This document shows, piece after piece, positions 20,857 to 40,777 of a stretch of DNA of 64,000 nt. The notes beneath the pieces were generated by a model. It saw only the letters and a program-made list of their open reading frames with translations. It was not told the DNA's origin and did no database searches. Both the position numbers and the translations under genes were made by a program. Positions within the stretch are counted from its first letter, which is position 1. The number at the start of each line of letters is the position of its first letter. The DNA is from an uncultured Acidobacteriota bacterium (GTDB lineage Bacteria > Acidobacteriota > Thermoanaerobaculia > Multivoradales > UBA5704), in NCBI GenBank assembly GCA_963770895.1, contig CAVYRF010000001.1, positions 800,001-864,000 on the forward strand. The letters are read 5' to 3'.

Positions 20857-23800
20857 CTACTGCCCCTGCGTCCGCACCGGCGGCTCCGGCCGCTTGGGGT
20901 AGGCCTTGGGATCGGCAGCGATCTTCTTCATCACCTCCGCCACCCCGCGCTCCAGCTGGGGATCGCGGCCGTCGAGGACGGACGCGACGTCGTTGGGCAC
21001 CACGATGTCCGGATCGACGCCGTGCCCTTCGATGATCCATTTGCCTTCCAGCGACACCGACCCGGCCTCGGGCACGAAGATCTGGCCGCCGTCGATCATG
21101 GGGCCGTGATAGTTGATGCCCACGACCCCTCCCCAGGTGCGCGTGCCGATCAGCGGACCCAGGCCGAGCTGGCGGAACATGTAGGGGAAGATGTCGCCGT
21201 CCGAGCCGGAGCCCTCGTTGAGCAGGCACGCCATGTGGCCGTAGAACGCCTCCTGCGGATAGGGCATCGGATCGGCGTCGGTGCGCCCGAAGTCCACCGC
21301 CAGCGGGTGACGCGCCAGCCGCTCCAGCAGGATCGGCGAGATGAAGCCGCCGCCGTTGTCGCGCACGTCGACGATCAGTCCTTCCTTGCGGACCTGGCCG
21401 AAGTACCACTTGTCGAATTCCCGCATCCCGTCTTCGCCCATGTCGGGCAGATGGATGTAGCCGAGCCGGCCGCCGCTCAGGCGGGTCACCTCTTCGCGGT
21501 TGTGGTTCACCCAGGCCAGGTAGATCAGGTGCTCCTCGGTCTCGATCGGCCGGAAGGTGATCTCCCTGGCGCCGTCCAGGGTGGGCTTGGCGTTGACCGT
21601 CATGCGCACCGGCCGGTCCGCCTTGTGGCGCAGCAGCCGGTAGGGATTGTCGCTGCCGGCAAGATCCTCGCCGTCGATCGCCAGCACGTAGTCGCCCGCG
21701 TGAACGTGCACGCCCACCTCGGTCAGCGGCGAGCGGTACAGGTCCTCTTCGTTCTGGCCGTCGTAGATCCTGGCGATCCGGTAGCGTCCGGCCTTGGCAT
21801 CCAGCTCGAAGCGCGCGCCCGGCAGCGCCACCTTGGGGCTGGGCGGCGCCTTGTAGTCGCCGCCGGCGATGTAGGAGTGCGAATTGTTCAGCTCGGCGAT
21901 CATCTCGCCGATGATGTAGTTCACGTCCGACCGGTGGCCGGCGTAGGCGAGCAGCGGCTCGTACTGCCGGCGCAGCGCCTCCCAGTCGTAGCCGTTCATG
22001 GTCGGCACGTAGAAATAGTCGCGGTAGCGGCGCCACGCCTCGCGGAACACCTCAGCCCACTCTTCGGCCGGCACGCGATCGACCATCATGCCGCCAGTAT
22101 CGATCGTCTTTTTGGCATCCTTGCCGGCGACCGTGGCGTCGTACACGTTGTAATGCCCGTCCTCGGTCGCCAGCAGCTTGCTGCCGTCCTGCGACAGGGC
22201 ATAATCGCTCACGTTTTCGGCGAACGTCACCATCTTGCGGTCCTTGATGGTAAAGATCAGCAACGCCGGCTTGAACGGCGGTTCGTTCAAGGTGTTGGGC
22301 GGCTGCTTGACAAAGAACAGCCGGCCGTCGGCGGCACGCAACGAACCGTAGTTGTCGAAGGGCACCGGCGCCCGCACCACCCGCGAGCCAAGCCCGTCAA
22401 AGTCGATCCTGGTGCAAGCCGGCGCCGCCGCCGCCTTGCCGTCCTTGTCCTTGCCGTCCTTGCGATCCTTGCCGTCCGTGTCCGCCTGGCCGGCCGCGCC
22501 CTTCTTGCCGCCCTTCGCCGCGTGCCCGCCGCCCTCTTCGCCGGCGTTCTTTTCCTCCGCCAGCGTCACCGAATCCTCCTCGGGAGAGAACAGGTTGGCG
22601 ACGTCCTTGCGCAGCGCCAGAGCGAAGACGCCGACGTTGCGGTCCTGGGCAAAGTTGAAATCCACCGCGTCGAACTGCCCCAGGTACGAGCGCGCCGACA
22701 GGTAGAACAGGTAGTCCCCCTTGGGATCCCACGCCGGGCTGAAGGCCTGGAACAGCGGGTCGGTCACCTGCCGCAGCTTGCCGTCCGCCACGCTCCACAT
22801 CCACAGCGAGCGGAAGGTGTTGGCGTTGGCCATGCTGAACGCCAGGTGGCCGCCGCAAGGCGACCACGCGTAATCGTGGATCTGGCCGCGCACGTCGTGC
22901 GCCACTTCGATCAGCGTCCGATCGGCCACCGACACCACCCACAGCCGGCCGTCCTTGTCGGAAAACGCCAGCCGTTTGCCGTCCGGCGCCCACTCGGGCG
23001 CAAAGCGCTGCACCTTGCCGCCGCTGGTCAGCCGCTCCGGCTTGCCCACTCCCAGGGCGTCGACGACGTAGATCTCCTCTTCGCCGGTGCCGTCCGAGAT
23101 GTAGGCGATCTTGCGGCCGTCCGGCGACCAGCGCGCCCCCTTGTCGTGAGCGTCCGACGAGCGGGTGAGATTGCGCGTCACCCCCTTTTCGATCGGCGTG
23201 TTGAATATGTCGCCGCGCGCCGCGAACACCGCGCGCTCCCCCTTGGGCGACAGCGCGGCGTCCTCGACCTGGTCGGCCGCCGCGACCTGGGACGGCCGCG
23301 TATCCAGCCCGTCGCTGGGAACGTCGATCGCCAGGTGCCGCGCTTGCCCGGAGCGGGTATCGAACACGTTCAGCTCGCCGTTCAGCTCGTAGACGATCTG
23401 CCCCTCCGCGTCGGCGCTCGGCCAGCGCACGTCCCACTGCGTGCTGGAGGTCAGCTGCGCGGTGGCGCCGCTCGCCAGGTCGTAGGAGTAGAGGTTGAGC
23501 GTGCCGGTGCGGTCCGAATCGAAATAGATCTTGTTGCCGATCCACATCGGATCGCGCTCGGTGCGCGGCGTGTTGGTGATCTGCCGGGTCGCATGCGTCG
23601 TCAGGTCGAAGATCCAGAGATCCTGCGCCCAGCCCCCCTGGTAGCGCTTCCAGGTGCGGAAGTCGCGAGCGAACGGGGTGTAGACCACCTTCTTGCCGTC
23701 CGGAGACAGGTTGGCGCCGCCGCTCGCCGGCATGGGCAGCGGCTCGGGCAGCCCCCCGGTCACCGGCACGGAGTAGATGCGGCTCTGGCCGTGCGACCAG

Positions 23801-24276
23801 CCGTCGCGCATGGATCGGAAGTACACCGCCTTGCCGTCCGGCGTCCAGCCGTAGACCTGGTTGTCATACCCCCAGCGCGGCGGCAACGGTCCGCGCGCCG
23901 GGTAGAAGGTCAGCTGCTTGGGCACGCCGCCGGTCGCCGGAATGACGTAGACCTGCTCGTCGCCGTCGTATTGCCCGGTGAACGCGATCCACTTGCCGTC
24001 AGGCGAAAACCTGGCAAACAGCTCCAGCCCAGGATGGGCGGTCAGCCGCGTCGCCGTCCCGCCGCCGACCGGCGCCGTCCACAGGTCGCCGGCATAGGTG
24101 AACGCCACCTTGTCCCGATAGATCGCGGGAAACCGCAGCAGCTTGGTCTGGCCGAACGCCGCGCCGGCAGCCGCTCCAGCCGCCACGACGAAGCACACGA
24201 CGAATCGCGCCACGCGGGCGATGCGCGCGACGCGAGCCCCGCCAGCGGCGGGGGTGCTGCGGAAAACTCGCTGCAT
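20857..24276 (-). CDS. Tricorn protease (S41 peptidase, PD40 propellers, PDZ)
   Basis: LLRFPAI..VAFTYAGDLW, SPDG repeats, GYIHLPDM, DVRDNGGG, GSDGDIF, GTRTWGG, IEGHGVDPD. Confidence 0.93.
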   Translation of the reverse strand: MQRVFRSTPAAGGARVARIARVARFVVCFVVAAGAAAGAAFGQTKLLRFPAIYRDKVAFTYAGDLWTAPVGGGTATRLTAHPGLELFARFSPDGKWIAFTGQYDGDEQVYVIPATGGVPKQLTFYPARGPLPPRWGYDNQVYGWTPDGKAVYFRSMRDGWSHGQSRIYSVPVTGGLPEPLPMPASGGANLSPDGKKVVYTPFARDFRTWKRYQGGWAQDLWIFDLTTHATRQITNTPRTERDPMWIGNKIYFDSDRTGTLNLYSYDLASGATAQLTSSTQWDVRWPSADAEGQIVYELNGELNVFDTRSGQARHLAIDVPSDGLDTRPSQVAAADQVEDAALSPKGERAVFAARGDIFNTPIEKGVTRNLTRSSDAHDKGARWSPDGRKIAYISDGTGEEEIYVVDALGVGKPERLTSGGKVQRFAPEWAPDGKRLAFSDKDGRLWVVSVADRTLIEVAHDVRGQIHDYAWSPCGGHLAFSMANANTFRSLWMWSVADGKLRQVTDPLFQAFSPAWDPKGDYLFYLSARSYLGQFDAVDFNFAQDRNVGVFALALRKDVANLFSPEEDSVTLAEEKNAGEEGGGHAAKGGKKGAAGQADTDGKDRKDGKDKDGKAAAAPACTRIDFDGLGSRVVRAPVPFDNYGSLRAADGRLFFVKQPPNTLNEPPFKPALLIFTIKDRKMVTFAENVSDYALSQDGSKLLATEDGHYNVYDATVAGKDAKKTIDTGGMMVDRVPAEEWAEVFREAWRRYRDYFYVPTMNGYDWEALRRQYEPLLAYAGHRSDVNYIIGEMIAELNNSHSYIAGGDYKAPPSPKVALPGARFELDAKAGRYRIARIYDGQNEEDLYRSPLTEVGVHVHAGDYVLAIDGEDLAGSDNPYRLLRHKADRPVRMTVNAKPTLDGAREITFRPIETEEHLIYLAWVNHNREEVTRLSGGRLGYIHLPDMGEDGMREFDKWYFGQVRKEGLIVDVRDNGGGFISPILLERLARHPLAVDFGRTDADPMPYPQEAFYGHMACLLNEGSGSDGDIFPYMFRQLGLGPLIGTRTWGGVVGINYHGPMIDGGQIFVPEAGSVSLEGKWIIEGHGVDPDIVVPNDVASVLDGRDPQLERGVAEVMKKIAADPKAYPKRPEPPVRTQGQ

Positions 24277-27447: not shown

Positions 27448-27921
27448 ATGCTGCCTATCACCCCATACCAGATCTATCTCTCGGGCTTGCTGACCAACCC
27501 CCAGATGAGCGGAAATATCGACTCGGACAACCATGTCATCACCATGGCCGCCGCGGGCGGCGCGGCGATCGCAATCTCGCTCGCCGGCTTGCACGACGCG
27601 AGCGGCCAGCCGGTGACCTACCAGCCCAGCAAGCCCATCGCCTTCGTCGACAAGCTTGGCGTGGAGATACCGCAACCAAGCTTCATCTCCTGGGTGCTGC
27701 TGTCGTCGCTTGACATCCTGATCACCAATCTCAACTACAACTCGCACCGCACCCACTTCGTGCTGCTCTTCGAAACCAGCGATCACCTGGTCGTTGCCAG
27801 CAACGCCGTCGGCTTCGATCCGACCATCGTCAACACCTACGTGCCGCCGCCGCAGGACGTCGTGCCGGAGGCGGCGCCCGCCCCGGCGCCGGCGCTCAGA
27901 GTGGTGGCGGGCCGGCGGTGA
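27448..27921 (+). CDS. Hypothetical small beta-rich protein (DPTIVN C-terminal motif)
   Basis: AAAGGAG RBS; weak similarity to the previous ORF. Confidence 0.75.
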   Translation: MLPITPYQIYLSGLLTNPQMSGNIDSDNHVITMAAAGGAAIAISLAGLHDASGQPVTYQPSKPIAFVDKLGVEIPQPSFISWVLLSSLDILITNLNYNSHRTHFVLLFETSDHLVVASNAVGFDPTIVNTYVPPPQDVVPEAAPAPAPALRVVAGRR

Positions 27922-30900
27922 GGCGGTCGCGCAGCTCGGGGGCGGAGCGCAGGGCGTCGAACCACGGGAAGCTGAACCACCGCGGATCGACGCCCTGGCG
28001 CAGGGCCTGCTGGGCGTTCCACACCGCGGAGGCGTGGTCGCCCAGCACCGCGAAGACCACCGCCACCTCGCTTTCGGCCTGGGCATTGCCGGGAGCCAGC
28101 GCCAGGACCTGCTGCGCCGCCGCGACCGCCGGCAGGCGCTGGCCCAGGTGGGCGAGCGCCTGGGCGCGCGCCGAAACCACCTGCCACTGCCCGGCGGCGG
28201 GGTCCTCCGCGGTCAGGCGCAGCAGCCGGCGGTACTGCTCGTGCGCTGCCGCCGCGTCGCCCTGGAGCAGCAGCACGTCGGCCAGGTTGAGGGTCACGAA
28301 GGGGTTGTCGGGCTCGCTCGCCAGCGCTTCCCGGAAGCGCGCCGCGGCCTCGGGATAGCGGCGCAGCAGCATGTAGGCGGTGCCCAGGTTGATGACCTCG
28401 GTCTCCTGGGGCGACCGGCGCAGCAGCTCGACGTAGAGGTCCGCGGCGCGCGCCGGGCTGCCGCTCAGCAGCTCGATCTGCGCCAGCAGCGACTGCGCCG
28501 GGTAGATGCCGGGCGCGCGGGCGAGCAGCATGTAGAGGTCGCGGCGCGCCGCGGCGGCTTCGCCCAGGCGGTACTCCATGTCGGCGAGCGCCAGGTAGTG
28601 GCCCCACGACGGGCGGCGCCGGCACGCCTCGCGCTGCAACGCCAGGGCGGCGGCGGTCGCGCCGCGCCGCTCGGCCAGGCGGGCGCGCTGCGCCAGCACC
28701 ACCGGGTCGCCGGGTTGCAGGCGCTCGAGCTCCTGCAGGTCGGCCGCCGCGCGCTCCAGGCGCCCGGCCTCGAGCGACAGCGAAAAGTCGGTGATCAGCG
28801 GCGCCGGGTCGCCGGGAACCAGCCCTCGCGCCGCGGCCAGCAGGTCGAAGGCGCGCGCCAGGTCGGCGGCGTCGCGGTGGTCGCGGAAGCGGTAGCGCAG
28901 GATCTCCGCCTCCAGCAGCGCCGCCTCCAGGAAGCGCGGCGACCCGCGGCGCAGCGCGGCCAGGCGCGCCAGGAGCGCGCTGGTGCGGTCGGTGCCCCCG
29001 CGGCGCGTGAAGTCACGCTGGACGTCGAGGTACTCGCGGTAGGCGGCGGCGGAAGCCACCTCCAGGTGCGCAAAGCCCTCGCGCGCCGGGTGGCGCGGGT
29101 AGCCGAGGTGGATCTGCGACTCGACGGCGTGCTCGATCGCGTAGGGATCGCCGGCCGGCACGTCGAAGGCGTACTCCCAGAGCAGCCGTCCGTCCGCCCC
29201 GCGCAGCCGGGCGAGCGCCACGCGGCACTGGAAGGCGCCGGCGCCGCAGCGGATCGCGGCGGTGAGCAGCTCGTCGGCGCCGGTGGCCCGCGCCACCGCG
29301 ACCGGCGGCCCCGGCACCGGGTCCACCTGCTCGGGCGCGATCGCCGAGATCCCGCGCCGCGACAGCAGGCCGCGCAGCAGTGCCGAGCGGATGATCGATG
29401 CCAGCAGGTCGGCGCTCAAGCTGGCGGCAGGAGGCGCGGCGCTGGTGGCGGCGCTGGGACCCGCGACGGCGGCGGTGCCGGCGGGAGCGGCCGAGCCGCC
29501 GCGCGCGGACGGGTCGGCTCCCGCGACCGCGACCTGCGGCGCCAGCACGGCCACGGCGAGCGGCGGCGCGACGGCGCTCGCGTCGCGGCTCCGCCACAGT
29601 GCGAGCCCCGCCAGAGATGACAGGATCAGCGCCAGGCTGAGCCCCGCGGCGACGGCGACGCGGCGGCGGCCGGCGACCGCGAAGGCGGTGGCGAGGGTGG
29701 AACCGATGCCGGCGCTGGACGGCGGACCGGACGCCACGGTCGGCGGCTCGGCGGCGCTTGCGGACGGGGCGGCCGCGGCGGACGGGGCGGACGCGGCAGC
29801 CAGGGCGGCCCCGGATGCCGCGGCGGCGACCGGCGCCCCGGATGCCGCGGCGGCGACCGATGCCCCGGATGCCGCGGCGGCGACCGATGCCCCGGATGCC
29901 GCGGCGGCGACCGATGCCCCGGATGCCGCGGCGGCGACCGGCGCCCCGGATGCCGCGGCGGCGACCGATGCCCCGGACGCCGCGGCGGGAAGGGTGGGCG
30001 GCGACGTGGCGGCGCCGGGCTGCCGGGAGGCGGGCAGGCCGTCGATCACCGTCGAGGCCTGGGGCGGCGCGGCCGCTCCGGCCGGCGCGCGGCTGGCGGC
30101 GGCGGCAGGGCCTCCCGCCGCCGCCAGCGCGGCGAGCGCCGCCACCACATCCTGGGCGCTCTGCGGCCGGTGCGCGGGCTCCTTTTCGAGCAGGCGATCG
30201 ATCAGGTCGGACAGCGCCGCGGGGATCGCCGCGTTCAGGGCGCGCGCCGGCGGCTGGCGCAAGGTGCAGACGTTGGTGAGCGTGGCGAAGGCGCTGGCGC
30301 CCAGGAAAGGCGAGCGTCCGGCGACCATCTCGTAGAGCAGCGTGCCGAAGGAGAACAGGTCCGAGCGGTGATCGATCGCCACACCGCGCGCCTGCTCGGG
30401 GGACATGGCGCGGTAGGTGCCGACGACCGCGCCGTCCTGCGAGATCAGGCTCTCGCCATGCTCCTCACTCTCCTCGGCGCGCCGCCTGGCCAGCCCGAAG
30501 TCCAGCACCTTGGCGTGTCCCGCCGGCGTCACCATGACGTTTTCGGTCTTGAGGTCGCGATGGACGATGCCCAGCGCGTGGGCCGCGGCAAGGCCGCCGG
30601 CGATCTCAAGACCCAGGCGCACGGCGCGTTCGACGGCGAAGCCGCCCTCGCGCCGCAGCGCGGCGGCCAGCGTCGAGCCCGCGACCAGCTCCATGACGAT
30701 CGCGTCCCCCTGCTCGGTCGCCAGCACCTGATGGACCTTGACCACCGCCGGGTGATCCAGCGCCGCGGCGGCGCGCGCCTCGCGCCGGAAGCGGCGGCGG
30801 GCGTCGTCGCCGGCAGCCGCGGAGCGGCGGATCACCTTGATGGCGACAGGCCGCTCCAGGCGCTCGTCCCAGGCGCGGTAGACCTCGCCCATGCCACCCT

Positions 30901-30997
30901 CTCCCAGCTTGGCATCCAGGCGATAGTGCCCGAGCCGCCGCGGCGCCGGCGGCGACGTCGGCGGCGGTGGTGGCGGGGGGAATGCCGATGCGGCCAT
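27896..30997 (-). CDS. Membrane Hanks-type Ser/Thr kinase with C-terminal TPR region
   Basis: LGEGGMGEVY, VAIK, HRDLKTEN, DFG, MSPEQ, SDLFSFG; one TM; TPR-like helices. Confidence 0.93.
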   Translation of the reverse strand: MAASAFPPPPPPPTSPPAPRRLGHYRLDAKLGEGGMGEVYRAWDERLERPVAIKVIRRSAAAGDDARRRFRREARAAAALDHPAVVKVHQVLATEQGDAIVMELVAGSTLAAALRREGGFAVERAVRLGLEIAGGLAAAHALGIVHRDLKTENVMVTPAGHAKVLDFGLARRRAEESEEHGESLISQDGAVVGTYRAMSPEQARGVAIDHRSDLFSFGTLLYEMVAGRSPFLGASAFATLTNVCTLRQPPARALNAAIPAALSDLIDRLLEKEPAHRPQSAQDVVAALAALAAAGGPAAAASRAPAGAAAPPQASTVIDGLPASRQPGAATSPPTLPAAASGASVAAAASGAPVAAAASGASVAAAASGASVAAAASGASVAAAASGAPVAAAASGAALAAASAPSAAAAPSASAAEPPTVASGPPSSAGIGSTLATAFAVAGRRRVAVAAGLSLALILSSLAGLALWRSRDASAVAPPLAVAVLAPQVAVAGADPSARGGSAAPAGTAAVAGPSAATSAAPPAASLSADLLASIIRSALLRGLLSRRGISAIAPEQVDPVPGPPVAVARATGADELLTAAIRCGAGAFQCRVALARLRGADGRLLWEYAFDVPAGDPYAIEHAVESQIHLGYPRHPAREGFAHLEVASAAAYREYLDVQRDFTRRGGTDRTSALLARLAALRRGSPRFLEAALLEAEILRYRFRDHRDAADLARAFDLLAAARGLVPGDPAPLITDFSLSLEAGRLERAAADLQELERLQPGDPVVLAQRARLAERRGATAAALALQREACRRRPSWGHYLALADMEYRLGEAAAARRDLYMLLARAPGIYPAQSLLAQIELLSGSPARAADLYVELLRRSPQETEVINLGTAYMLLRRYPEAAARFREALASEPDNPFVTLNLADVLLLQGDAAAAHEQYRRLLRLTAEDPAAGQWQVVSARAQALAHLGQRLPAVAAAQQVLALAPGNAQAESEVAVVFAVLGDHASAVWNAQQALRQGVDPRWFSFPWFDALRSAPELRDRLTAGPPPL
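29811..29989. repeat. 27-bp in-frame tandem repeat (6 full copies plus a partial; AAAASGA[S/P]V)
   Basis: CCGGATGCCGCGGCGGCGACCG[GC/AT]GCC units in the kinase linker. Confidence 0.9.
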
Positions 30998-31039
30998 GGG
31001 AACGCGAGCGGTCGCTGGTGTCCCAAGCCGGGCCGGCCG

Positions 31040-32827
31040 CTAGCTGATGAGCCGGCTCATGCGCCGCTTGAGGCCGGGTTTGGAAACCTCCAGCGCTTCG
31101 GCCATGCGGTCGAGGTCGCCGCCGCAGCGCGCGGCGCAGCTTTCGATCTCGGCGCGCGTCAGGTCGGCGGCCTTGCGAAAGCGTGTGCTGCCGTCGATGC
31201 GGTCGTAGAGCGAACCGCGCGGCACGCCCAGGTGGCGAGCGGCCAGCTGCAGCCGCCAGCGATGGGCGCGCAGCGCCTCCAGGATCTCGTCGTCGGCGAT
31301 CTGATCGAGGCGGCGGCGGGGTGGGAGTCTGGGGTCTGCCGCTCGGGCGGCGGCGGCGGTCCCGTCGCCGCCGGCCGCGGCCGGCGCGTCGGCCGGCGCG
31401 GTCGGGTCGTGCGCCCCGGCTCCGGCAGCTCCGGTGGCTCCGGCGGCGTTGGTGGCTCCGGTGGCGTTGATGCCGTTGGTGGCTCCGGTGGCGTTGGTGG
31501 CGTTGGTGGCGGCGTTGGCGTCGGTGGCGTTGATGGCGCCGGTGGCTCCGGTGGCGCCGGGCGGTGGCGCGGTGAGCAAAAGCGCCGATGCGGGGTCGAG
31601 CGACGCCTCCGCGGCGTCGTGGCAGCGGACGGCGAGCTGGCGCGCCAGGTTGCGCAGCTGGCGGACGTTGCCCGGCCAGTCGCCGGCCGCCAGGCGGGCC
31701 ACGAGCGGTGCCGGCAGCCAGGGGCGGCCCTCGCCGGCGGGCGCCGCCAGGCGGTCGGGCGCACCGATCGCCGCCAGCTCGGCGGCCAGGAAGTGGTAGA
31801 GCAGGCGGCCGAAGTCTTCGCGCCGCTCGCGCAGCGGCGGCAGGCGGATCTCGTAGCCGCCAAGGCGGTGGAACAGCGGCGCCTTGAAGCGGCCGTCCCG
31901 CACCGCTTCGTCCAGCCGCGCGTCGGTCGCCGCGATCACCTGCGCGTCCACGGCCTGCGTCTCGCCGCTCCCCACCGGCTGCACCTCGCGGGTTTCGAGC
32001 ACCCGCAGCAGCATCACCTGAACTTCGGCTGGCGTTTCGCCGATCTCGTCCAGGAACAGCGTGCCGCCGTGCGCGCGGCTGAAGTAGCCCTGGCGCTGCC
32101 GGTCGGCGCCGGTAAACGCGCCGCGCGCGGCGCCGAACAGCTCCGCGCCCGCCAGCGCCGCGGGGATCGCCCCCATGTTGACGGCCAGGAAGGGGCGGTT
32201 GCGGCGCGGTCCCGCGGCGTGCAGGGCGCGCGCCACCACCTCCTTGCCGGTACCGGTTTCGCCGCTCAGCAGCACCGACAGATCCAGCGGCGCGACGCGC
32301 AGGATTTCGCGCCGCAGCCGCACGATGCCGGGGCTCGCGCCCACCAGGCCGCAGTCGGCGAGCGGCTCGGCCAGCACTTCGACCGGGGAAAGCAGCAGGA
32401 CCACGCGGCCCGCCAGCAGCAGCACCACGCCGCGCGCGATGTCTGACGCCGGGATCTCGCGTTCGCCGGCGACCGCCTCGCCGCCGGCGACCACGGCGGT
32501 GCGGCTGGCCTGGCAGCGCAGCACGACGGCTCCGGGCGTCCCCCCGGGCGCCAATTCGATCGGCTGGCGGCTCAGATGAATGTCGTCCAGCGGCCGGCGC
32601 AGCCCCTGCCCCGGCTGAGCAAACAGCAGCTCGCCGCGCGCCACGCGCTCGACCTGCCCGGCGGCTAGGCCAAGAAGCGCCGCGCGCTCGCCCACGCGGC
32701 GCGCGTCGGGGTGCGCCAGGATCGTCAGCCCCGGCACCAGCGCCGCCGCCGCCGGTAAACCGGCGCCGCTCTGGGACCGCGTCTCCAGGCCCAACCTGTC
32801 GACCGTCTCCTCGCTGCTATGAGGCAC
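31040..32827 (-). CDS. Sigma54-dependent enhancer-binding protein with FHA-like N-terminus
   Basis: GETGTGKE, GAFTGA, LFLDEIG, WPGNVRQL, C-terminal HTH; N-terminal DIHLSR motif and no REC domain; ATN/ATG tripeptide repeat insert at about 31430-31560. Confidence 0.9.
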   Translation of the reverse strand: MPHSSEETVDRLGLETRSQSGAGLPAAAALVPGLTILAHPDARRVGERAALLGLAAGQVERVARGELLFAQPGQGLRRPLDDIHLSRQPIELAPGGTPGAVVLRCQASRTAVVAGGEAVAGEREIPASDIARGVVLLLAGRVVLLLSPVEVLAEPLADCGLVGASPGIVRLRREILRVAPLDLSVLLSGETGTGKEVVARALHAAGPRRNRPFLAVNMGAIPAALAGAELFGAARGAFTGADRQRQGYFSRAHGGTLFLDEIGETPAEVQVMLLRVLETREVQPVGSGETQAVDAQVIAATDARLDEAVRDGRFKAPLFHRLGGYEIRLPPLRERREDFGRLLYHFLAAELAAIGAPDRLAAPAGEGRPWLPAPLVARLAAGDWPGNVRQLRNLARQLAVRCHDAAEASLDPASALLLTAPPPGATGATGAINATDANAATNATNATGATNGINATGATNAAGATGAAGAGAHDPTAPADAPAAAGGDGTAAAARAADPRLPPRRRLDQIADDEILEALRAHRWRLQLAARHLGVPRGSLYDRIDGSTRFRKAADLTRAEIESCAARCGGDLDRMAEALEVSKPGLKRRMSRLIS

Positions 32828-32892: not shown

Positions 32893-35112
32893 CTAGTCGA
32901 AGGGGAGAGGTGCTGGTGTCCAGGCAGGGGGTGCCCGGCGCAGGGCTGCGCGAAGGCTGGCCTGGCGCTCGGGCGCTCCGGGGTCCTGTGGCCGCAGGCG
33001 GGCGAGCGCGGCATCCGCCGTGCCGGCCAGCTCCCAGCGTCGCGCCTGGAGGGCCAGGGCGAACTCGTCGGCGAGCGGGCGCGGATCGGCCGGTGCCGTT
33101 GCCCGCGCGGCGGCGAGCGCGGCCAGGGCCTGGGCCAGCGCGGCGGCATCGCGGCCCGCCCCCCATCGCCGGCGCAGCAGCTCGGCCAGCAGCAGCGCGC
33201 CGGGGACGAAACGCGGCGAGCCGGCGCACACGGCGCGCGCCGCGGCAAGGTCGGCATCTGTCGGAGCGCCGTCCGGCGCCAGGGCCAAGCGCAGTCCGAG
33301 ATAGCGTTGGAAATCGCCCGGCGCCACGGCGAGCGTCGCGGCGCCGGCACGGTCGGGCAGCGAATGGTTCGCCCACGCGCGCCGCAGGTAGCGCTCCGCC
33401 GCCGCCGCCAGGACGTAGGCATCGCCCGCCGGGGTTTCCCACCTCTGCGTCCAGAGGACGCTGCCGTCGCGTCCCGAGATGCGGCTCACCCAGACCTCGC
33501 ACGTGTCGGGCTGGCAGCGGAGGTGCGAGGTCACCACCTCGCCGGCCCCCGCGGCACGTGCTACCGCAACCGGCGAGCGGTCGGCGGCGCGGTCCACCGC
33601 CGCTTGCGGTGCCACCATGATGCCGTCGAGCGCCGCGATGGCATCGGCGAGCGCCACCCGCAGGGCCGCCGCCAGCGGCGCCGATCCGCCCGTGCCGCTG
33701 CCGGGAGTGACGACCGGCGGCGCCACCGCCACGGTGAGCGTGGGCCCGGCGCGCGGCCACCACCACCAAACCAGGATGCCGCCTGCGACCAAAAAGGCCG
33801 TGGCGAGCGCGGCGGCCAAGCCCCGGCGGCCACGCAAAACGCGCAGGGCTCGCGTCGTCAGACGCGACGCGACGCCTGAGGACAACGGTATCGGCGGCGT
33901 TGGCGCAACCGTGACGGGCACCGCCACGCCCGATGGCGCAACGGTGACCGGCACCGCCAGGGCTGTTGTAGGTACAGCGGAGGCTGGCACCGGCAGGGCC
34001 GGCGGTGCAACGGCGGCTGGCATCGCCAGGGCCATTTGAGCATCTGTGGCCGGCATAGCCAGGGTTGGCGGCGCATCAACGTCCGGCATCGCTATGGCCG
34101 GAGGCGCAGCGGCGGCTGGCACCGCTATGGCCGGAGGCGCAGCGGCGGCTGGCATCGCCAGGGCCATTTGAGCATCTGTGGCCGGCATAGCCAGGGTTGG
34201 CGGCGCATCAACGTCCGGCATCGCTATGGCCGGAGGCGCAGCGGCGGCTGGCACCGCTATGGCCGGAGGCGCAGCGGCGGCTGGCATCGCCAGGGCCGGA
34301 GGCGCAGCGGCGGCTGGCACCGCCAGGACCGGCGGCGCACTGCCGGCCGGCACCGCCGCGGCCGGCGGCGACGGCATGGCGGTTGCGCCGCTCAGCACCG
34401 TCGCGGCTTCGGCGGCGCTGGGTGGGTGTGGCGCGGTCGCGGCCGCGAGCAGCCCAGCGATCAGGTCCGAGATCGCAGGCTCAGGTTTGCTGCCTGGGCT
34501 GCCGGCGGCGCCGTCGAGCAGATCGCGCAGCAGGACGCCGAGCGCCGCCAGGTCTGCGCGCTCGGCGTCCGCCATCTCGCCGGGCGCGCCGGGCACGGCC
34601 GCCGGGAAGAGGCGGCGCGCGAAGCCAAAGTCCAGGATCTTGACTTGCCCGGCGGGTGCGACTTTCACCTTGTCGGCGCGCAGATTGCCGTGCGCCATGC
34701 CCCCGGCGTGCGCCGCCGCCAGGCCGGAAGCCAGCTGGGCCGCGAGCCGCAGGGCCGCCCCCAGGTCGCCGCCCGCGCCGTCCACACGCGCACCGTGAAC
34801 GGGCGATCCGGTGCGCCATGCCGGCAGGCTCTCACCCGCGGCGAGCTCCATCACCAGGACGTCGGTGCCGCCGTCCTCGAGCAAGGCGTGGATGGATACG
34901 ATCGCCGGGTGGTCCAGCGCCGCCGCCGCGCGCGCCGCCTCCCGGAACCGCTCGCGCAATGCAGCATCGCGCGCCAGGGCGGGGTGCAGGCGCTGCAGCG
35001 CGACGGGCCGCCGCAGCACTTCGTCCCAGGCGCGAAAGACCTCGCCGGTGCGTCCGCCGCCCAGCCGTTCCTCGATACGGTACGGCCCGATGCGCGGCGG
35101 TAGGGCAGCCAT
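32893..35112 (-). CDS. Membrane Ser/Thr pseudokinase, paralogous to the 27896-30997 kinase
   Basis: VALQR in place of VAIK, HGNLRADK in place of HRDLKxxN, DFG retained, no APE; TM and TPR-like C-terminus align with the active kinase. Confidence 0.8.
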   Translation of the reverse strand: MAALPPRIGPYRIEERLGGGRTGEVFRAWDEVLRRPVALQRLHPALARDAALRERFREAARAAAALDHPAIVSIHALLEDGGTDVLVMELAAGESLPAWRTGSPVHGARVDGAGGDLGAALRLAAQLASGLAAAHAGGMAHGNLRADKVKVAPAGQVKILDFGFARRLFPAAVPGAPGEMADAERADLAALGVLLRDLLDGAAGSPGSKPEPAISDLIAGLLAAATAPHPPSAAEAATVLSGATAMPSPPAAAVPAGSAPPVLAVPAAAAPPALAMPAAAAPPAIAVPAAAAPPAIAMPDVDAPPTLAMPATDAQMALAMPAAAAPPAIAVPAAAAPPAIAMPDVDAPPTLAMPATDAQMALAMPAAVAPPALPVPASAVPTTALAVPVTVAPSGVAVPVTVAPTPPIPLSSGVASRLTTRALRVLRGRRGLAAALATAFLVAGGILVWWWWPRAGPTLTVAVAPPVVTPGSGTGGSAPLAAALRVALADAIAALDGIMVAPQAAVDRAADRSPVAVARAAGAGEVVTSHLRCQPDTCEVWVSRISGRDGSVLWTQRWETPAGDAYVLAAAAERYLRRAWANHSLPDRAGAATLAVAPGDFQRYLGLRLALAPDGAPTDADLAAARAVCAGSPRFVPGALLLAELLRRRWGAGRDAAALAQALAALAAARATAPADPRPLADEFALALQARRWELAGTADAALARLRPQDPGAPERQASLRAALRRAPPAWTPAPLPFD
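33900..34330. repeat. 33-bp unit repeats with a higher-order 132-bp duplication (34011-34274)
   Basis: Encodes AMPAAAAPPAI/AMPDVDAPPTL/AMPATDAQMAL blocks twice. Confidence 0.85.
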
Positions 35113-35305: not shown

Positions 35306-38300
35306 TTGCGATCATCCTGGTCGAAATCCGTTCGTGTGTTCCTCGGCGGCGAGAGCAATCCTTCGCGGCGCTCGCACCGGGCGTCGCGGCGAGTGCGGGT
35401 CGGTGTCTCTGCGTTCTGCGTGATCGGCGCGTGGGCGGTCGCCGGGCCGGCATCGGCGCAGATCCAGCGCGTCATCGTCAACCCCAGCTTCGAAGATCGC
35501 CTGCTGCCGCCGGCGCCCGTTTCGCTGATGCCGCTGCCGCACAACAACTTTGTCGAGGTCGACGAATCCTGGGTTCCGGGCTGGCTCACGACGGCGCCAG
35601 TGGTCAACGGCGGCTGTCCGGCGCCGATGGCGAACTGCCGGCCGATCGAGATGTGGTCGACGCCGTTTCTGGGCATCACCGCTCCCGACGGCATCGTCAC
35701 CGCGGAACTGAACGCCTACAACTTCGGCATGTTGTACCAGACCGTCTGCATGACGTCGGGAGAGACGCTGGTGTGGAGCTTCGACCACCACGGCCGGGCG
35801 GGCACCGACACGGCGGCGTTTCGCCTGGGCATTCCCACCGGGTTGCCGGCCGGCTCGAAGCCGCCGGATACCTATAGCTTTCCCATCGCCCAGGCGGCGA
35901 CGCCCAACAACGGCACGGTGGGGACGGTGACCAATCTGGACCCGACCCACGGCACGGTCAACGCGCCGGTCGTGGTGACCAACGGCTGGACCAAATATTC
36001 AGGCACCTACACCTTTCCGGGAGCGAGCGGCCTGGCCAATCTCGGCTTCGTGGCCATCGCCGCCGCCGGCGGCAACATCGCGGTCGGCAACGAGCTGGAC
36101 GCGATCGTGATCCAGCTTTCGCCCTACGTGGAATTCAGCGCCTCCAACTTCGCCATCGACAACAACGCCACCAACGTCGCCCCGACGGTGACCATCGCCG
36201 GCAGCGTCCCCGCCGGCGGCGTCGCGATCACCGTCGACGTCACCGGCGGCACCGCCGTGCTGGGCACGGATTACGTGCTCGGCGTCGGCGGCGATCCCCG
36301 CCTGAGCGCGATTTCGAGCACCGCCAACTCGGTGACGTTCACGATTCCCGCCGGCTTCTACAGCAGCGCGGAGGGCGGCAACGTCTTTACCATCCCGCTT
36401 GAAGCCATCGCTTCGCAGGCTCAACTTTCGACGCTCACCTTCGCCGTCGTGCCCGGCGGCGCCCAATACACGGTGGCGAGCACCGTGACCTGCGGCGCGC
36501 CCGCCCTGGGCACGACGGCGCTGACCATCACCGAAACGCCGCAGATCGGCCTGGTCAAGAGCGCCAGCTCCACCGGCTTCGTGGTCGGAGTGCCGGCCAG
36601 CTACACCCTGACGGTGACCAACACCGGCACGGTGACGACGACGCCTGCCGCGGCGACGGTCACCGACACCGTGCCAGCCCTGCTGACCCTCGGCCCCATG
36701 CCGGCGGGCTGCACGTCGGCCGGCCAGACGGTGACGTGCACCGTCCCGGCCGGATTGGCCGCGGGCCAGCTGGTGAGCTTCGTCATCCCGGTGACGCCGC
36801 AGGCGGGCGCCAACGGCACGACGCTGACCAATACCGCGGTGGTCGCCGGCGGCGGCGATCCCAACTGTCCAGCGGGCGCGGAGTGCACCGGCGCCGTATC
36901 GACCCCGGTCGCCGCGCCGCAGCTCACCCTGGTCAAGAGTGCCGGCGCCCCCAGCTTCGTGGTCGGGGTGCCGGCAAGTTACACCCTCCAGGTGACCAAC
37001 ACCGGCACCGCGACCACCACCGCGGCGGCGACGGTGACCGACGTGGTTCCCACCGTGCTCACGCCCGGCACGATGCCGGCGGGCTGCGCCGCCGCCGGCC
37101 AGACGGTCACCTGCACGGTGCCGGCAGGGCTGGCCGCCGGCCAGCTGGTCAGCTTCGTGATCCCGGTGACGCCGCTCGGCGCGGCGGGCGGGACCAATGT
37201 CACCAACAGCGCCACCGTCAACGGCGGCGGCGATCCCTCCTGCCCCGCGGCGGCGCACTGCGCCGGCACGGTGCAGACCGCCGTCGCCGAGCCGCAGCTG
37301 ACGCTGCAGAAGAGCACCGGCGCGCCGGCATTCGTGCTCGGCGTCCCGGCCAGCTATACCCTCGCGATCAGCAATACCGGCACCGCCGCGACGACCGCGC
37401 CGGCGACCATCACCGACAACGTTCCCGCCCAGCTGGCGCTGGGCACGCTCCCCGCAGGCTGCCAGGCCGTCAGCCAGACGGTCACCTGCACCGTGCCGGC
37501 CGGCCTGGCGCCGGGGCAGTTGGTGAGCTTCGTCCTGCCGGTCACGCCGCTGGCGGCCGGGGCCGGCACCACCGCCACCAATACCGCGACCGCCGCCGGC
37601 GGCGGCGACCCGTCCTGCCCGGCCGCGACGCGCTGCGCCGCGACCGTGACGACGCCGATCGAAGCGCCGCAGCTGACCCTGCTCAAGAGCCCGAGCGACG
37701 GCAGCTTCGTGGTCGGCGTGGCGGCCAGCTACACCCTGGTGGTGACCAATACCGGCACCTCGCCGACGACCGCCGCGGCGACGATCACCGACAACGTTCC
37801 CGCCCTGCTGACCGTGGGCGCTCCTCCCGCGGGCTGCGTTGCCAGCGGCCAGACCGTCACCTGCACCGTGGCCGCCGGCCTGGCGGCGGGACGGGCGGTG
37901 AGCTTCGTCATCCCGGTCACGCCGCAGCCGGCCGCCGCCGGCACCACCGCCGCCAACACCGCGACGGCCTCGGGCGGCGGCGACCCGTCCTGTCCGGCGG
38001 CGGACCACTGCACCTCGACCGTCGACACGCCGGTCGACGCGCCGCAGCTGACCGTGGTCAAGAGCCCCAGCTCGTCGAGCTTCGTCGTCGACGTGCCGGC
38101 CAGCTACACCCTGACGGTCACCAACACCGGCACCGCGGCGACGACGGCGGCGGCGACGATCGTCGACAACGTCCCCGCGCTCCTGACGGTGGGGGCCGCT
38201 CCCGCGGGCTGCACCGCCAGCGGTCAGACCGTCACCTGCACCGTGCCAGCCGGCCTGGCGACGGGGCAGGTGGTGAGCTTCGTGATCCCGGTGACGCCGC

Positions 38301-40777
38301 AGGCCGCCGCCGCCGGCACCACCGCCGCCAACACCGCCACGGCTTCCGGCGGCGGTGACCCGTCCTGTCCGGCGGCGGCGCACTGCACGTCCACCAACAA
38401 CACGCCGGTCGGGGCGCCGCAGCTGACGCTGGTCAAGAGCGCGAGCGACACCAGCTTCGTCGTCGGCGTGGCAGCCAGCTACACCCTGACGGTCACCAAC
38501 ACCGGCACCGCGGCGACGACCGCGCCGGCGACCGTCGCCGACAACGTCCCCGGCCTGCTGACCGTGGGGACCTTGCCCGCGGGCTGCACCGGCAGCGGCC
38601 AGGCCGTCTCCTGCACCGTGCCAGCCGGCCTGGCGACGGGACAGGTGGTGAGCTTCGTGATTCCGGTGACGCCGCAGGCCGGCGCCGACGGCACCACCGC
38701 CGCCAACACCGCGACGGCCTCGGGCGGCGGCGACCCGTCCTGTCCTGGCGCGACCCACTGCACCAGCACGGTCGACACGCCGGTCCATGCGCCGCACCTG
38801 AGCCTGGTCAAGACCGCCAGCGACGCCAGCTTCGTCGTCGGCGTGCCGGCCAGCTACACCCTGACCGTCACCAACACCGGCACCGCGGCGACGACCGCGC
38901 CGGTGCTGGTCAGCGACAACGTTCCCGGCCTGTTGACCGTGGGGACCTTGCCGGCGGGCTGCACCGGCAGCGGCCAGGCCGTCGTCTGCACCATACCCGC
39001 CGGCCTGGCGGCGGGGCAGGTGATCAGCTTCGTCATCCCGGTGACGCCGCTGCCGGCAGCCTCGGGCACCAGCGCCGCCAACACCGCGACGGCCTCGGGC
39101 GGCGGCGATCCGGCGTGCCCGGCCGCCGCTCCTTGCACGTCGACCGTCACGACGCCGGTGGAAGCGCCGCAGCTGACGCTGGTCAAGGCTCCCAGCGCGG
39201 CCAGCTTCGTCGTCGGCGTGCCGGCAAGCTACACCTTGACCCTGACCAATACCGGCACCGCGGCGACGACGGCGGCGGCGACGGTCGTCGACAACGTCCC
39301 CGGCGTGCTCGCCGTCGGCACGCCGCCCGCGGGCTGCGTCGCCAGCGGCCAGACCGTCACCTGCACGGTTGCCGCCGGCCTGGCGACGGGGCAGGGGGCG
39401 AGCTTCGTCATCCCGGTGACGCCGCTCGCCGATGCCAGCGGCACCACCGCCAGCAATACGGCGACGGCCTCGGGCGGCGGCGACCCGTCCTGTCCCGCGG
39501 CGGCGCAGTGCAGCAGCACCGTGACGACGCCGGTCGACGCGCCGCAGCTGACGCTGGTCAAGACGGCCAGCGCCGCCAGCTTCGTCATCGGCGTGCCGGC
39601 CAGCTACACCCTGACCGTGACCAATACCGGCACCGCGGCGACGACGGCGGAGGCCACCGTCACCGACGCCGTGCCGGCGGTGTTCGCCCTGGGCTCCTCC
39701 CTGCCCGCCGCTTGCACGGCGACCGGCCAGAACGTCACCTGCGCCATCGCGGGCGGTCTGGCCGCCGGTCAGAGCGTCAGCTTCGTGATTCCGGTGACGC
39801 CCCTGGCGGGCGCCGCCGGCAGCACCATCACCAACACCGCCACGGTCTCGGGCGGCGGCGATCCCAGCTGCCCGGCGGCGGCGCACTGCACCAGCACCGT
39901 CGGCAGCCCTGTCGGCGCGCCGCAGCTCCTGGTGACCAAGACCGCCAGCGCGGCAAGCTTCAGCATGGGTATGCCGGCCACCTACACCATCACGGTCACC
40001 GACACCGGCTCGGCGGCGACGACGGCGGCGGCGACGGTGACCGACAACGTGCCTTCCAACCTGGCGTTGGGCGCCATGCCCACCGGCTGCACGGCTTCAG
40101 GTCAGCTGGTCACCTGCACCGTGGCGGCGGGCCTCGCGGCCGGCCAGTCGCAGAGCTTCGTCCTGCCGGTCACGCCGGCCGCCGCCGCCAGCGGCGCCGT
40201 GGTCACCAACACGGCGACCGTGTCGGGCGGCGGCGACCCCACCTGTCCGGCGGCGGCACACTGCGCCGGCACGATCGCGGTTCCGGTCAACGCGCCGGAG
40301 CTCAGCCTGGCCAAGACCGCCAGCGTCACCAGCTTCACCCTCGGCGTTCCCGCCAGCTACACCCTGACCGTCACCAACAACGGTACTCTGGCGACCACCG
40401 CGGCCGCCACCGTCACCGACAACGTGCCCCAGGGCCTGGCGGTCGGCGCCCTGCCGGCCGGCTGTGTCGCATCCGGCCAGACCGTCACCTGCACCGTCGC
40501 GGCCGGCCTCGGCCTGGGCCAGGCCGTCAGCTTCGTCATTCCGGTGACGCTGCAGATGTCCACCGCCGCCGCGCTCAGCAACACCGCGACGCTCGCCGGC
40601 GGCGGCGACAGCACCTGCCCGATGGCGGCACGCTGCGCCGCGACCGTCGTCGTGCCCGCGGCCGCCGGCATTCCGACCCTCTCCACATGGGGTCTGGCGG
40701 CGCTGGCGCTGCTGCTGGCCGGGGTCGGCGCGGGCATGTTGCGGCTGCGGCGGCACCACCGCGGAGACCCGGCTTGA
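35306..40777 (+). CDS. Large surface adhesin: 11 DUF11/CnaB-like repeats and an IPTL-CTERM sorting signal
   Basis: TTG start after AAGGAG (ATG at 35276 also possible), signal peptide, repeats L.KS..F.VG..SYTL.VTNTG, C-terminal IPTLSTWGL + TM + RR. Confidence 0.88.
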   Translation: MRSSWSKSVRVFLGGESNPSRRSHRASRRVRVGVSAFCVIGAWAVAGPASAQIQRVIVNPSFEDRLLPPAPVSLMPLPHNNFVEVDESWVPGWLTTAPVVNGGCPAPMANCRPIEMWSTPFLGITAPDGIVTAELNAYNFGMLYQTVCMTSGETLVWSFDHHGRAGTDTAAFRLGIPTGLPAGSKPPDTYSFPIAQAATPNNGTVGTVTNLDPTHGTVNAPVVVTNGWTKYSGTYTFPGASGLANLGFVAIAAAGGNIAVGNELDAIVIQLSPYVEFSASNFAIDNNATNVAPTVTIAGSVPAGGVAITVDVTGGTAVLGTDYVLGVGGDPRLSAISSTANSVTFTIPAGFYSSAEGGNVFTIPLEAIASQAQLSTLTFAVVPGGAQYTVASTVTCGAPALGTTALTITETPQIGLVKSASSTGFVVGVPASYTLTVTNTGTVTTTPAAATVTDTVPALLTLGPMPAGCTSAGQTVTCTVPAGLAAGQLVSFVIPVTPQAGANGTTLTNTAVVAGGGDPNCPAGAECTGAVSTPVAAPQLTLVKSAGAPSFVVGVPASYTLQVTNTGTATTTAAATVTDVVPTVLTPGTMPAGCAAAGQTVTCTVPAGLAAGQLVSFVIPVTPLGAAGGTNVTNSATVNGGGDPSCPAAAHCAGTVQTAVAEPQLTLQKSTGAPAFVLGVPASYTLAISNTGTAATTAPATITDNVPAQLALGTLPAGCQAVSQTVTCTVPAGLAPGQLVSFVLPVTPLAAGAGTTATNTATAAGGGDPSCPAATRCAATVTTPIEAPQLTLLKSPSDGSFVVGVAASYTLVVTNTGTSPTTAAATITDNVPALLTVGAPPAGCVASGQTVTCTVAAGLAAGRAVSFVIPVTPQPAAAGTTAANTATASGGGDPSCPAADHCTSTVDTPVDAPQLTVVKSPSSSSFVVDVPASYTLTVTNTGTAATTAAATIVDNVPALLTVGAAPAGCTASGQTVTCTVPAGLATGQVVSFVIPVTPQAAAAGTTAANTATASGGGDPSCPAAAHCTSTNNTPVGAPQLTLVKSASDTSFVVGVAASYTLTVTNTGTAATTAPATVADNVPGLLTVGTLPAGCTGSGQAVSCTVPAGLATGQVVSFVIPVTPQAGADGTTAANTATASGGGDPSCPGATHCTSTVDTPVHAPHLSLVKTASDASFVVGVPASYTLTVTNTGTAATTAPVLVSDNVPGLLTVGTLPAGCTGSGQAVVCTIPAGLAAGQVISFVIPVTPLPAASGTSAANTATASGGGDPACPAAAPCTSTVTTPVEAPQLTLVKAPSAASFVVGVPASYTLTLTNTGTAATTAAATVVDNVPGVLAVGTPPAGCVASGQTVTCTVAAGLATGQGASFVIPVTPLADASGTTASNTATASGGGDPSCPAAAQCSSTVTTPVDAPQLTLVKTASAASFVIGVPASYTLTVTNTGTAATTAEATVTDAVPAVFALGSSLPAACTATGQNVTCAIAGGLAAGQSVSFVIPVTPLAGAAGSTITNTATVSGGGDPSCPAAAHCTSTVGSPVGAPQLLVTKTASAASFSMGMPATYTITVTDTGSAATTAAATVTDNVPSNLALGAMPTGCTASGQLVTCTVAAGLAAGQSQSFVLPVTPAAAASGAVVTNTATVSGGGDPTCPAAAHCAGTIAVPVNAPELSLAKTASVTSFTLGVPASYTLTVTNNGTLATTAAATVTDNVPQGLAVGALPAGCVASGQTVTCTVAAGLGLGQAVSFVIPVTLQMSTAAALSNTATLAGGGDSTCPMAARCAATVVVPAAAGIPTLSTWGLAALALLLAGVGAGMLRLRRHHRGDPA
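36540..40660 (+). repeat. 11 tandem ~375-bp (125-aa) coding repeats
   Basis: Unit starts PQ/PH/PE-L.LVK[S/T] recur every ~375 bp. Confidence 0.9.

Follow-up and report, generated by a model that had tools for sequence, protein, structure and literature searches.

The question raised by P0001

Is a gene that encodes a receptor-like protein kinase without its catalytic residues a retained pseudokinase acting beside an active paralogue, or is it a duplicated kinase gene in decay? The question is raised by P0001, a gene on the minus strand of a 64,000-nucleotide (nt) window from an uncultured acidobacterial genome (G000, 8.16 Mb, ~70% G+C). The window, that is, the whole stretch of DNA analysed, is G000:C1:800001-864000, and positions given below without a contig are those of the window. 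An earlier note on this DNA had proposed that P0001 is a retained pseudokinase that serves as a co-receptor or allosteric partner of an active kinase encoded nearby. Our analysis points the same way: with a probability of about 0.6, P0001 is a retained receptor-like pseudokinase that acts as the non-catalytic partner of the active kinase P0003 and tunes sigma-54-dependent output. Judged by its residues, P0001 has lost phosphotransfer chemistry, as it has no beta3 Lys, alphaC Glu, catalytic Asp or activation/P+1 segment. Neutral decay of the gene is very unlikely when its orthologues, their monophyly, the pattern of loss, the conserved core, the ratio of nonsynonymous to synonymous substitution rates (dN/dS) and the fold are taken together.

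Catalytic motifs and domain architecture of P0001

P0001 (32893..35112, minus strand, stop codon included) encodes 739 amino acids (aa) from an ATG start, and its N-terminus matches those of the orthologues P0005, P0006 and that of G001, a genome of the same genus. The cytoplasmic pseudokinase domain occupies residues 1-245 (34378..35112, minus strand), as delimited by Pfam, BLASTP, alignment, AlphaFold2 (AF2) and Foldseek. The three motif losses on which the earlier note relied were all found: the catalytic Lys is replaced by Gln40 in VALQR (residues 37-41, 34990-35004), the catalytic loop reads HGNLRADK (residues 141-148, 34669-34692), and the APE segment is missing. In this loop HRD is changed to HGN (H141-G-N143) and the Mg-binding Asn is Lys148. 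The activation segment and alphaG are absent as well; BLASTP aligned residues 7-201 to P0003 (41% identity, 1e-25), and this alignment leaves P0001 ~21 residues short at the activation loop and SPE motif of P0003. In addition to the losses first quoted, the alphaC Glu position is Ala59. DFG is retained (residues 161-163), and D161 is the sole catalytic residue kept beside Q40, A59, N143, K148 and the absent APE. Further, Pfam PF00069 (Pkinase) matched with 47.2 bits (cut-off 31.7) over profile positions 1-148 of 263 only. P0001 has lost two of the three residues VAIK-Lys, HRD-Asp and DFG-Asp and has retained the fold; by the sequence definition, loss of one of the three is enough for a pseudokinase.

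The kinase domain is followed by a Pro/Ala-rich linker (residues 246-430; 33823..34377, minus strand; assigned by repeat analysis and composition), which is presumably disordered. It contains an in-frame tandem repeat (33975-34370, minus strand) of 12 copies of 33 nt, with a higher-order unit of 132 nt in 2.4 copies; at 96% identity, this 132-nt unit represents a recent in-frame expansion. The linker is shorter in P0005, G001, P0006 and P0010, the repeat of P0005 having fewer copies, and its G+C content at third codon positions (GC3) is 0.71 compared with 0.86 in the flanking P0001 domains. A hydropathy scan placed a single transmembrane (TM) helix at residues 431-452 (33757..33822, minus strand), directly preceded by the basic stretch RVLRGRRG. 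Residues 453-739 (32896..33756, minus strand) constitute the extracytoplasmic sensor domain, which was assigned by BLASTP to P0003, AF2 and Foldseek and consists of two lobes: an alpha/beta lobe, in which the Cys pair C533/C538 is invariant, and a helical lobe that resembles TPR. The TM and C-terminal domain had been said to match the active kinase. This held for the sensor domain, of which residues 514-687, covering the VAVARA..C..C..R..G.DG..LW stretch, are 36% identical to P0003 (2e-20), but not for the TPR tail of P0003 (~240 aa), which is missing from P0001, as the protein ends soon after the shared sensor domain. The sensor domains of pseudokinases and active kinases have this Cys pair in common, as well as the motifs SPRF and DPRP. 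No Pfam family matched the sensor domain of P0001 or P0003, even at E 10.

The frame is indeed open for 739 codons; however, an open frame alone is weak evidence in this DNA, since its G+C content is 71-79% and long shadow frames stay open. One such frame of 1295 codons is open next door (35999-39886, minus strand), opposite a real gene. The case that P0001 is a real gene is therefore made by its orthologues, conservation pattern, dN/dS and fold.

With respect to the fold, AF2 modelled the kinase domain with a predicted local distance difference test score (pLDDT) of 89.9 and a predicted TM-score (pTM) of 0.87, and the model had no activation loop, alphaEF or alphaG. Foldseek matched this domain to PknA, PknB, PknI and PknE of Mycobacterium tuberculosis (E 4e-14 to 7e-11, query TM-score (TMq) 0.62-0.75), the best match being PknA 4ow8 (E 4.1e-14, TMq 0.75). 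P0001 thus retains a well-packed kinase fold, above all in the N-lobe. The sensor domain was modelled by AF2 with a pLDDT of 89.7. Its best whole-domain match by Foldseek was the periplasmic domain of CadC (3ly8), a weak match (E 5.1e-4, TMq 0.50). VIA-align matched domain residues 126-269 to TPR proteins (Z 14.8); such proteins, which correspond to the helical lobe only, filled the best 50 rows, and CadC was not among these rows.

A clade of orthologues shares the losses

To place P0001 among its relatives, 5.8 billion proteins were searched for orthologues and 1.84 billion representatives were searched with a profile. P0005 is 85% identical to P0001 in the best local alignment and 90% identical over the alignment columns used in the tree; P0006 and P0010 are 48% and 38% identical, respectively, and the G001 orthologue is 50-54% identical. 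In the profile search P0006, P0005 and P0010 scored 843-943 bits and the next score was 499 bits. Among 146 further representatives that were checked, 140 were canonical, two were fragments without a kinase domain and four were non-canonical; two of these four (P0124 and P0165) are members of the same clade as P0001. The alignment separated the groups completely, with non-canonical motifs in 5/5 clade rows and canonical motifs in all 25 other rows.

The pseudokinase clade thus comprises seven sequences that are 38-90% identical. The five members found first were monophyletic with support of 100/99 in a careful tree (37 rows, 32 of them active kinases), and all seven were monophyletic in a quick tree of 44 rows (Shimodaira-Hasegawa-like approximate likelihood ratio test, SH-aLRT, 99). 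The alphaC Glu, HRD Arg and APE segment are absent in all seven. The remaining positions were lost in part of the clade: beta3 Lys in five of the seven (it is kept in P0010 and P0165), the HRD Asp in three, the Asn in five and the DFG Asp in three. At the catalytic-base position, P0001 has Asn, G001 has Gly, P0010 has His and P0005 has Asp; the difference between P0001 and the 90% identical P0005 (N vs D) argues that the position is unconstrained. Further, in all seven lineages, the most distant at 38% identity, a single frame runs through the kinase domain, TM helix and sensor domain, with no indels other than in-frame ones. Read from these alignments, the distribution suggests one inactivation in the common ancestor, after which the other catalytic residues drifted freely, a pattern to be expected of pseudokinases and not of pseudogenes.

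In a free tree without outgroup, the pseudokinases lay outside all 32 active rows, and a tree joining them with the neighbour kinases was not rejected by the approximately unbiased (AU) test (p 0.257). The clade may have arisen by tandem duplication or may be of older origin. A metagenome scan kept 76 loci, all with active-type kinases at most 43% identical; its back-translated patterns were no more specific than general kinase motifs, and it missed the contigs of P0005 and P0010. A scan of genome contigs with P0006 kept 80 loci, at most 45% identical.

As a separate observation, two representatives from the library, P0133 and P0248, belong to this receptor family and stand among the active clades in the tree, but lack individual catalytic residues (VAIQ with LGFG; HLD), which suggests independent, more recent inactivations in this receptor-kinase family.

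Selection on the pseudokinase

The core of the domain is conserved where the catalytic positions are not. Of the positions with at least 95% conservation among 31 active relatives, 31 are unchanged in each of the five pseudokinases aligned, while K40, E59, R142, D143, K145, N148 and D161 vary in these five. Mean conservation in pseudokinases was similar to that in active kinases in the N-lobe strands (0.80 vs 0.78) and alphaC (0.83 vs 0.82), and was relaxed in the catalytic loop (0.63 vs 0.80) and in the remnant of the activation segment (0.53 vs 0.86).

We estimated dN/dS by the Nei-Gojobori method (NG86) with bootstrap for a single pair, P0001 and its G001 orthologue. The ratio was 0.53 (bootstrap 0.45-0.63) over the gene, 0.42 (0.29-0.58) in the N-lobe (residues 1-170) and 0.54 in the sensor domain, figures that are rough because dS is saturating (maximum-likelihood (ML) dS 2.3-19.6). 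The ML estimates of dN/dS were set aside, as the ML dS reached 19.6. Among sequencing runs, five DNA datasets and no RNA dataset were found to contain the sequence words, at 0.07-0.20 of them; their contigs (at most ~300 nt), of a depth too low for pN/pS, showed three single-contig differences inside the P0001 gene, all in the repeat linker.

The proposal of a retained, non-decaying pseudokinase is thus well supported by the shared losses, the monophyly, the core positions and dN/dS below 1, which point to a gene kept by purifying selection. The earlier note had looked to orthologues for consistent catalytic loss with dN/dS below 1, and had regarded intact motifs in close relatives, together with neutral decay of this copy, as evidence to the contrary. 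We found three losses in all seven clade members, none of which has intact motifs, and a ratio of 0.53 for P0001 and its G001 orthologue.

P0001 is encoded with an activator and an active paralogue

P0001, P0002 (a sigma-54 activator, which the earlier note had not mentioned) and P0003 (the active kinase) follow one another in the same direction on the minus strand, with intergenic gaps of 65 nt (P0001/P0002) and 42 nt (P0002/P0003). No terminator-like site was found on the minus strand across this stretch, and we infer that the three genes are co-transcribed. The divergent intergenic region upstream of P0001 (35113..35392), in which G+C appears lower by eye, presumably holds the operon promoter. 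A sigma-70-like promoter scan gave 0 sites, and a scan with what we take to be the sigma-54 promoter consensus gave 68 matches with at most two mismatches compared with 77 expected, none convincing near the operon. An rpoN gene is present in the G000 genome. The same order of pseudokinase, activator and kinase genes was found in G001.

P0003 (27896..30997, minus strand, 1033 aa) matches Pkinase with 155.2 bits and all its motifs are canonical. It consists of a Ser/Thr kinase domain, a TM helix, a sensor domain as in P0001 and, at the C-terminus, a TPR array. P0003, the G001 kinase and P0007, which are the active kinases of genomes with a pseudokinase, form a clade of their own (100/100).

P0002 (31040..32827, minus strand, 595 aa) was assigned as a sigma-54 enhancer-binding protein by Pfam, profile and cluster searches; it has an AAA+ Sigma54_activat domain (196.3 bits) with GAFTGA and an HTH_8 domain. 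Pfam detected neither FHA nor any other family in its N-terminal 160 residues, even at E 10. A profile of this N-terminal domain gave chain 3gqs_A as its best solved match in the PDB, a weak one (E 0.047), in which an invariant Ser-Arg pair is aligned. This chain was deposited as an adenylate cyclase-like protein, and we take it to be an FHA domain. Further, the nearest named Atlas clusters were FHA clusters, at 0.89, 0.86 and 0.86, all below the 0.9 mark. From these sequence matches, the N-terminal domain of P0002 is probably a divergent FHA domain, and P0002 is probably the output of the module.

Of 41 related genomes, 28 contained an N-terminal domain of the P0002 type, one of them (G030) as many as 21. 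At 20 of 26 loci the activator gene lay directly upstream of a sensor-domain kinase gene on the same strand, and all of those kinases were canonical. Among the other six loci, four showed no kinase within the stretch that was retrieved (two of these lay on short contigs), one was convergent and one had another arrangement. The same pairing was found at all 11 loci reached through kinase matches. A pseudokinase gene stood upstream of only two of the 20 cassettes, those of G000 and G001, and G000 itself has a second cassette without one (C2:3432581-3436798). Since activator and kinase are paired at most loci and the pseudokinase is rare, the ancestral unit is a two-gene cassette of an activator followed by a receptor kinase. 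This cassette (27896-32827, minus strand, in the window; loci L028-L051 and L129-L139) is widespread and strongly expanded in the family and order, and looks like a Hanks-kinase counterpart of two-component systems.

A predicted heterodimer of P0001 and P0003

When the kinase domains of P0001 and P0003 were modelled as a complex, the interaction score (ipSAE) was 0.74, 0.74 and 0.73, compared with 0.00 for the best of three controls, which included no kinase-family protein, homodimer or non-cognate kinase. The ipSAE mark was reached by 116/157 solved complexes and 2/215 mismatched pairs, counts that are rough for our own alignments. The runs shared at least 91% of contacts, with a partner pLDDT of at least 80. 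In the predicted interface, which is nearly symmetric, the N-lobes are packed back to back through the beta2-beta3 turn, alphaC and beta4; the turn contacts involve residues 30 and 32-35 of P0001 and 44 and 46-49 of P0003, centred on Leu33 and Leu47, respectively. A back-to-back N-lobe dimer is the route of allosteric activation of PknB-type receptor kinases.

Two positions of this interface (P0001 numbering) differ between active kinases and the pseudokinase clade: Arg32, present in 97% of the active kinases, is V/L/Q, and Asp76, present in 94%, is A/T. The active kinases that co-occur with pseudokinases carry Gln (P0003) or Glu (the G001 kinase, P0007) in place of Asp76; if the model is right, this may be co-variation at the dimer interface. 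Speculatively, the changes at Arg32 and Asp76 hint at a remodelled, perhaps asymmetric, interface. PDB entry titles list L33D and D76A mutants of the PknB kinase domain; these are reportedly dimer-interface mutants of Lombana et al. from 2010, with an uncertain equivalence to the P0001 residues. An Arg10-Asp76 salt bridge of PknB was dropped as an interface marker for the same reason.

Proposed role of P0001 and alternative explanations

In the mechanism that we favour, P0001 would be co-transcribed with the FHA-like sigma-54 activator and P0003, and would heterodimerize with P0003, most likely via a PknB-type back-to-back N-lobe interface, to which the paired sensor domains possibly add contact. 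P0001 would tune the autophosphorylation of P0003 up or down, as an allosteric activator or as a decoy/inhibitor. The state of P0003 would then set the phospho-Thr-dependent control of the activator, and hence sigma-54 transcription. The partnership proposed in the earlier note is in keeping with the gene order in two genomes, the shared sensor fold and one complex model. The last of these, the pairing of the two kinase domains at an ipSAE of 0.74, may echo solved PknB-type dimers.

Several observations weigh against this interpretation, together with the saturating dS and the narrow set of controls mentioned above. As PknB-type dimers have already been solved, the complex model shows likeness to these and not binding of this pair, and its pass may be a memory of the solved PknB, PknD or PknE dimers. 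Conservation at the predicted interface (0.83) did not significantly exceed that of the remaining N-lobe (0.78; permutation p 0.15). The conserved three-gene order was seen in two genomes only (G000 and G001); P0006 and P0007 lie on one 1.24-Mb contig, and their adjacency was not seen. A P0001 orthologue was found in two of 10 genomes of the genus, so that the gene is dispensable for the lineage. The HRD Asp is kept in four of seven members (P0005, P0006, P0124 and P0165), as is the DFG Asp (P0001, P0005, P0006 and P0124), and, going by these residues, members that keep either may have residual nucleotide binding or activity. Further, dN/dS was 0.85 (0.53-1.39) in residues 171-245, which is not distinguishable from neutral; over the same divergence dN/dS of the pseudokinase gene was above those of its neighbours (0.35 for the activator and 0.40 for the active kinase); and its GC3 (0.82) was lower than theirs (0.90-0.93).

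The near-neutral ratio in residues 171-245 and the lower GC3 would fit a duplicated kinase gene in slow neutral decay, kept open by the rarity of stop codons in high-G+C DNA, and so would the dN of P0001, which is about twice that of its neighbours (tree path between the two species 1.2 vs 0.58), the long shadow ORFs in the DNA of the window and the lack of the gene in 8/10 genomes of the genus. Against decay, one frame is kept in seven lineages with only in-frame indels, the core is invariant while catalytic positions vary, and the N-lobe ratio is well below 1; both domains also give confident AF2 models, and the Cys pair, SPRF and DPRP are those of active kinases. We regard decay as the least probable explanation of all. 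Only slightly more credible, and still improbable, is an atypical active kinase or a WNK-like nucleotide-dependent switch, at least among the members with HGD and DFG. The HRD Asp, DFG Asp or beta3 Lys kept in some members would allow it, as would a largely intact Gly-rich loop; however, no member has the full catalytic set, the alphaC Glu, HRD Arg and activation/P+1 segment are lost in 7/7, and the catalytic base varies as described above, even between P0001 and P0005.

A different role for a retained P0001 would be that of a phospho-docking scaffold, in which P0003 phosphorylates a Thr of the pseudokinase linker or domain and the FHA-like activator docks there, to be sequestered or recruited at the membrane. 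The precedent is MviN of M. tuberculosis, in which we take the kinase and the FHA protein to be PknB and FhaA. In the available portion of a recent review, the pseudokinase domain of MviN is phosphorylated by a receptor kinase and then bound by an FHA protein (PMC12599244). The scaffold is compatible with the operon structure, with the FHA-like N-terminal domain of P0002 and its invariant Ser-Arg pair, and with the 12 Thr and 7 Ser of the P0001 linker. It is a rival of real weight, but we consider it unlikely: neither the length nor the sequence of the linker is conserved in the clade, which leaves no conserved phospho-site to point to; the assignment of FHA is weak (E 0.047; 0.89 against a mark of 0.9); and in most relatives the two-gene cassette does without a pseudokinase. 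Somewhat less doubtful is a narrower form of the partnership, in which P0001 and P0003 would pair through both their sensor domains and a PknB-like N-lobe interface, as a bacterial heterodimer of receptor kinase and pseudokinase whose origin is independent of the eukaryotic pairs. P0001 would be an allosteric co-receptor that provides a second ligand input or sets the gain in a self-contained, HER2/HER3-like module of three genes, which drives sigma-54 transcription through the FHA-like activator. We put this forward tentatively, as we do its corollary that the pseudokinase was added to the widespread cassette of Hanks kinase and FHA-activator, which would take the place of a two-component system in Thermoanaerobaculia.

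Relation to known systems

Eukaryotic kinase/pseudokinase pairs include HER2-HER3, STRAD-LKB1 and the plant receptor-kinase/pseudokinase co-receptors. Like these, P0001 is an inactive paralogous receptor with intact fold and ectodomain beside an active one, known here from the genes alone. Unlike these, the pair is bacterial and of independent origin, is encoded in one operon and has a sigma-54 activator as probable output in place of a phosphorylation cascade. P0001 shares with PknB, PknD and PknE the arrangement of kinase domain, linker, single TM helix and extracytoplasmic sensor, and an N-lobe interface of their type is predicted for it; its best sequence matches included PknA (1.8e-19), followed by PknE and PknB (~2e-14). 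In contrast to these active homodimers, P0001/P0003 is a predicted heterodimer of an active and an inactive kinase, with Arg32 and Asp76 replaced in the pseudokinase clade. The sensor domain resembles that of E. coli CadC (PDB 3ly7, 3ly8, 3ly9 and 3lya), a single-pass membrane signal protein, in its alpha/beta and helical lobes; however, the match is weak (12% identity), and CadC carries a DNA-binding domain where P0001 carries a kinase domain.

Hanks-type pseudokinases of bacteria have been catalogued recently and, by the available part of the review, are almost unstudied at the bench (PMC12599244). As far as the accessible text of the survey goes, about 300,000 bacterial kinases were sorted into 35 canonical families and seven pseudokinase families, namely ActPs1-3, CP1, DYD, DLHK and GLW (bioRxiv 10.1101/2025.01.12.632604). 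In the accessible text of both sources, these families are discussed mainly for Actinobacteria, Cyanobacteria and Proteobacteria, and ActPs3 is described as mainly actinobacterial with all three catalytic motifs fully lost (PMC12599244; bioRxiv 10.1101/2025.01.12.632604). Acidobacteria are unmentioned in both main texts, although the supplements may list such sequences (PMC12599244; bioRxiv 10.1101/2025.01.12.632604); the word heterodimer is absent from the review (PMC12599244). A literature search for 'pseudokinase' with 'Acidobacteria' returned nothing on the subject by title.

Going by these partial descriptions, the P0001 clade is similar to ActPs3 and MviN in being a membrane-associated Hanks-type pseudokinase with the hallmark deletion of the activation loop, and in the non-catalytic role, inferred for P0001, that is coupled to both an active receptor kinase and an FHA protein. 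It differs from them, as described there, in that P0001 keeps DFG, in its acidobacterial host, in branching beside local active kinases and in sharing an operon with an active paralogue and a sigma-54 activator. These first three differences suggest that the clade arose independently of the described families. Bacterial Hanks-type pseudokinases are thus a known kind, and one as such will not surprise a specialist; the operon-encoded pair with an active paralogue and a sigma-54 activator is a new variant and a good experimental entry point. The locus combines a membrane receptor pseudokinase, its active paralogue and a probable output regulator in one operon, the pseudokinase-free cassettes of relatives are natural controls and the predicted interface is mutable, so that the effect of a bacterial pseudokinase on its kinase is directly testable here. 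The locus also brings into view a large family, as yet without a name, of kinase/sigma-54-activator gene pairs in Thermoanaerobaculia.

Other kinases of the genome and neighbouring genes

Among the 28 kinase-domain open reading frames (ORFs) of G000, three lack some residue of the catalytic triad, and in two further ones the beta3 Lys was unreadable because the region was unaligned; P0001 alone among the 28 also lacks the activation segment. Possible additional pseudokinases are an ORF at C2:4798279-4800627 (minus strand), with HGH for HRD and with DFGPG, and an ORF at C2:1172840-1174906 (plus strand), with VLLR, HGF and LGFE.

In the window, a protein of 1794 aa is transcribed divergently from P0001 (35393-40777, plus strand). 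It has a signal peptide, 11 DUF11 repeats (256 bits), a DUF7507 domain and an IPTL-CTERM sorting motif (28.2 bits), and this neighbour is not conserved in G001. Opposite this gene lie long shadow ORFs: one has 1295 aa, and a further six, with GC3 of 0.93-0.96, have 110-119 aa. Further, 20857-24276 (minus strand) encodes a tricorn-like protease of 1139 aa with PD40 beta-propeller repeats and Tricorn_C1, PDZ_Tricorn and Peptidase_S41 domains.

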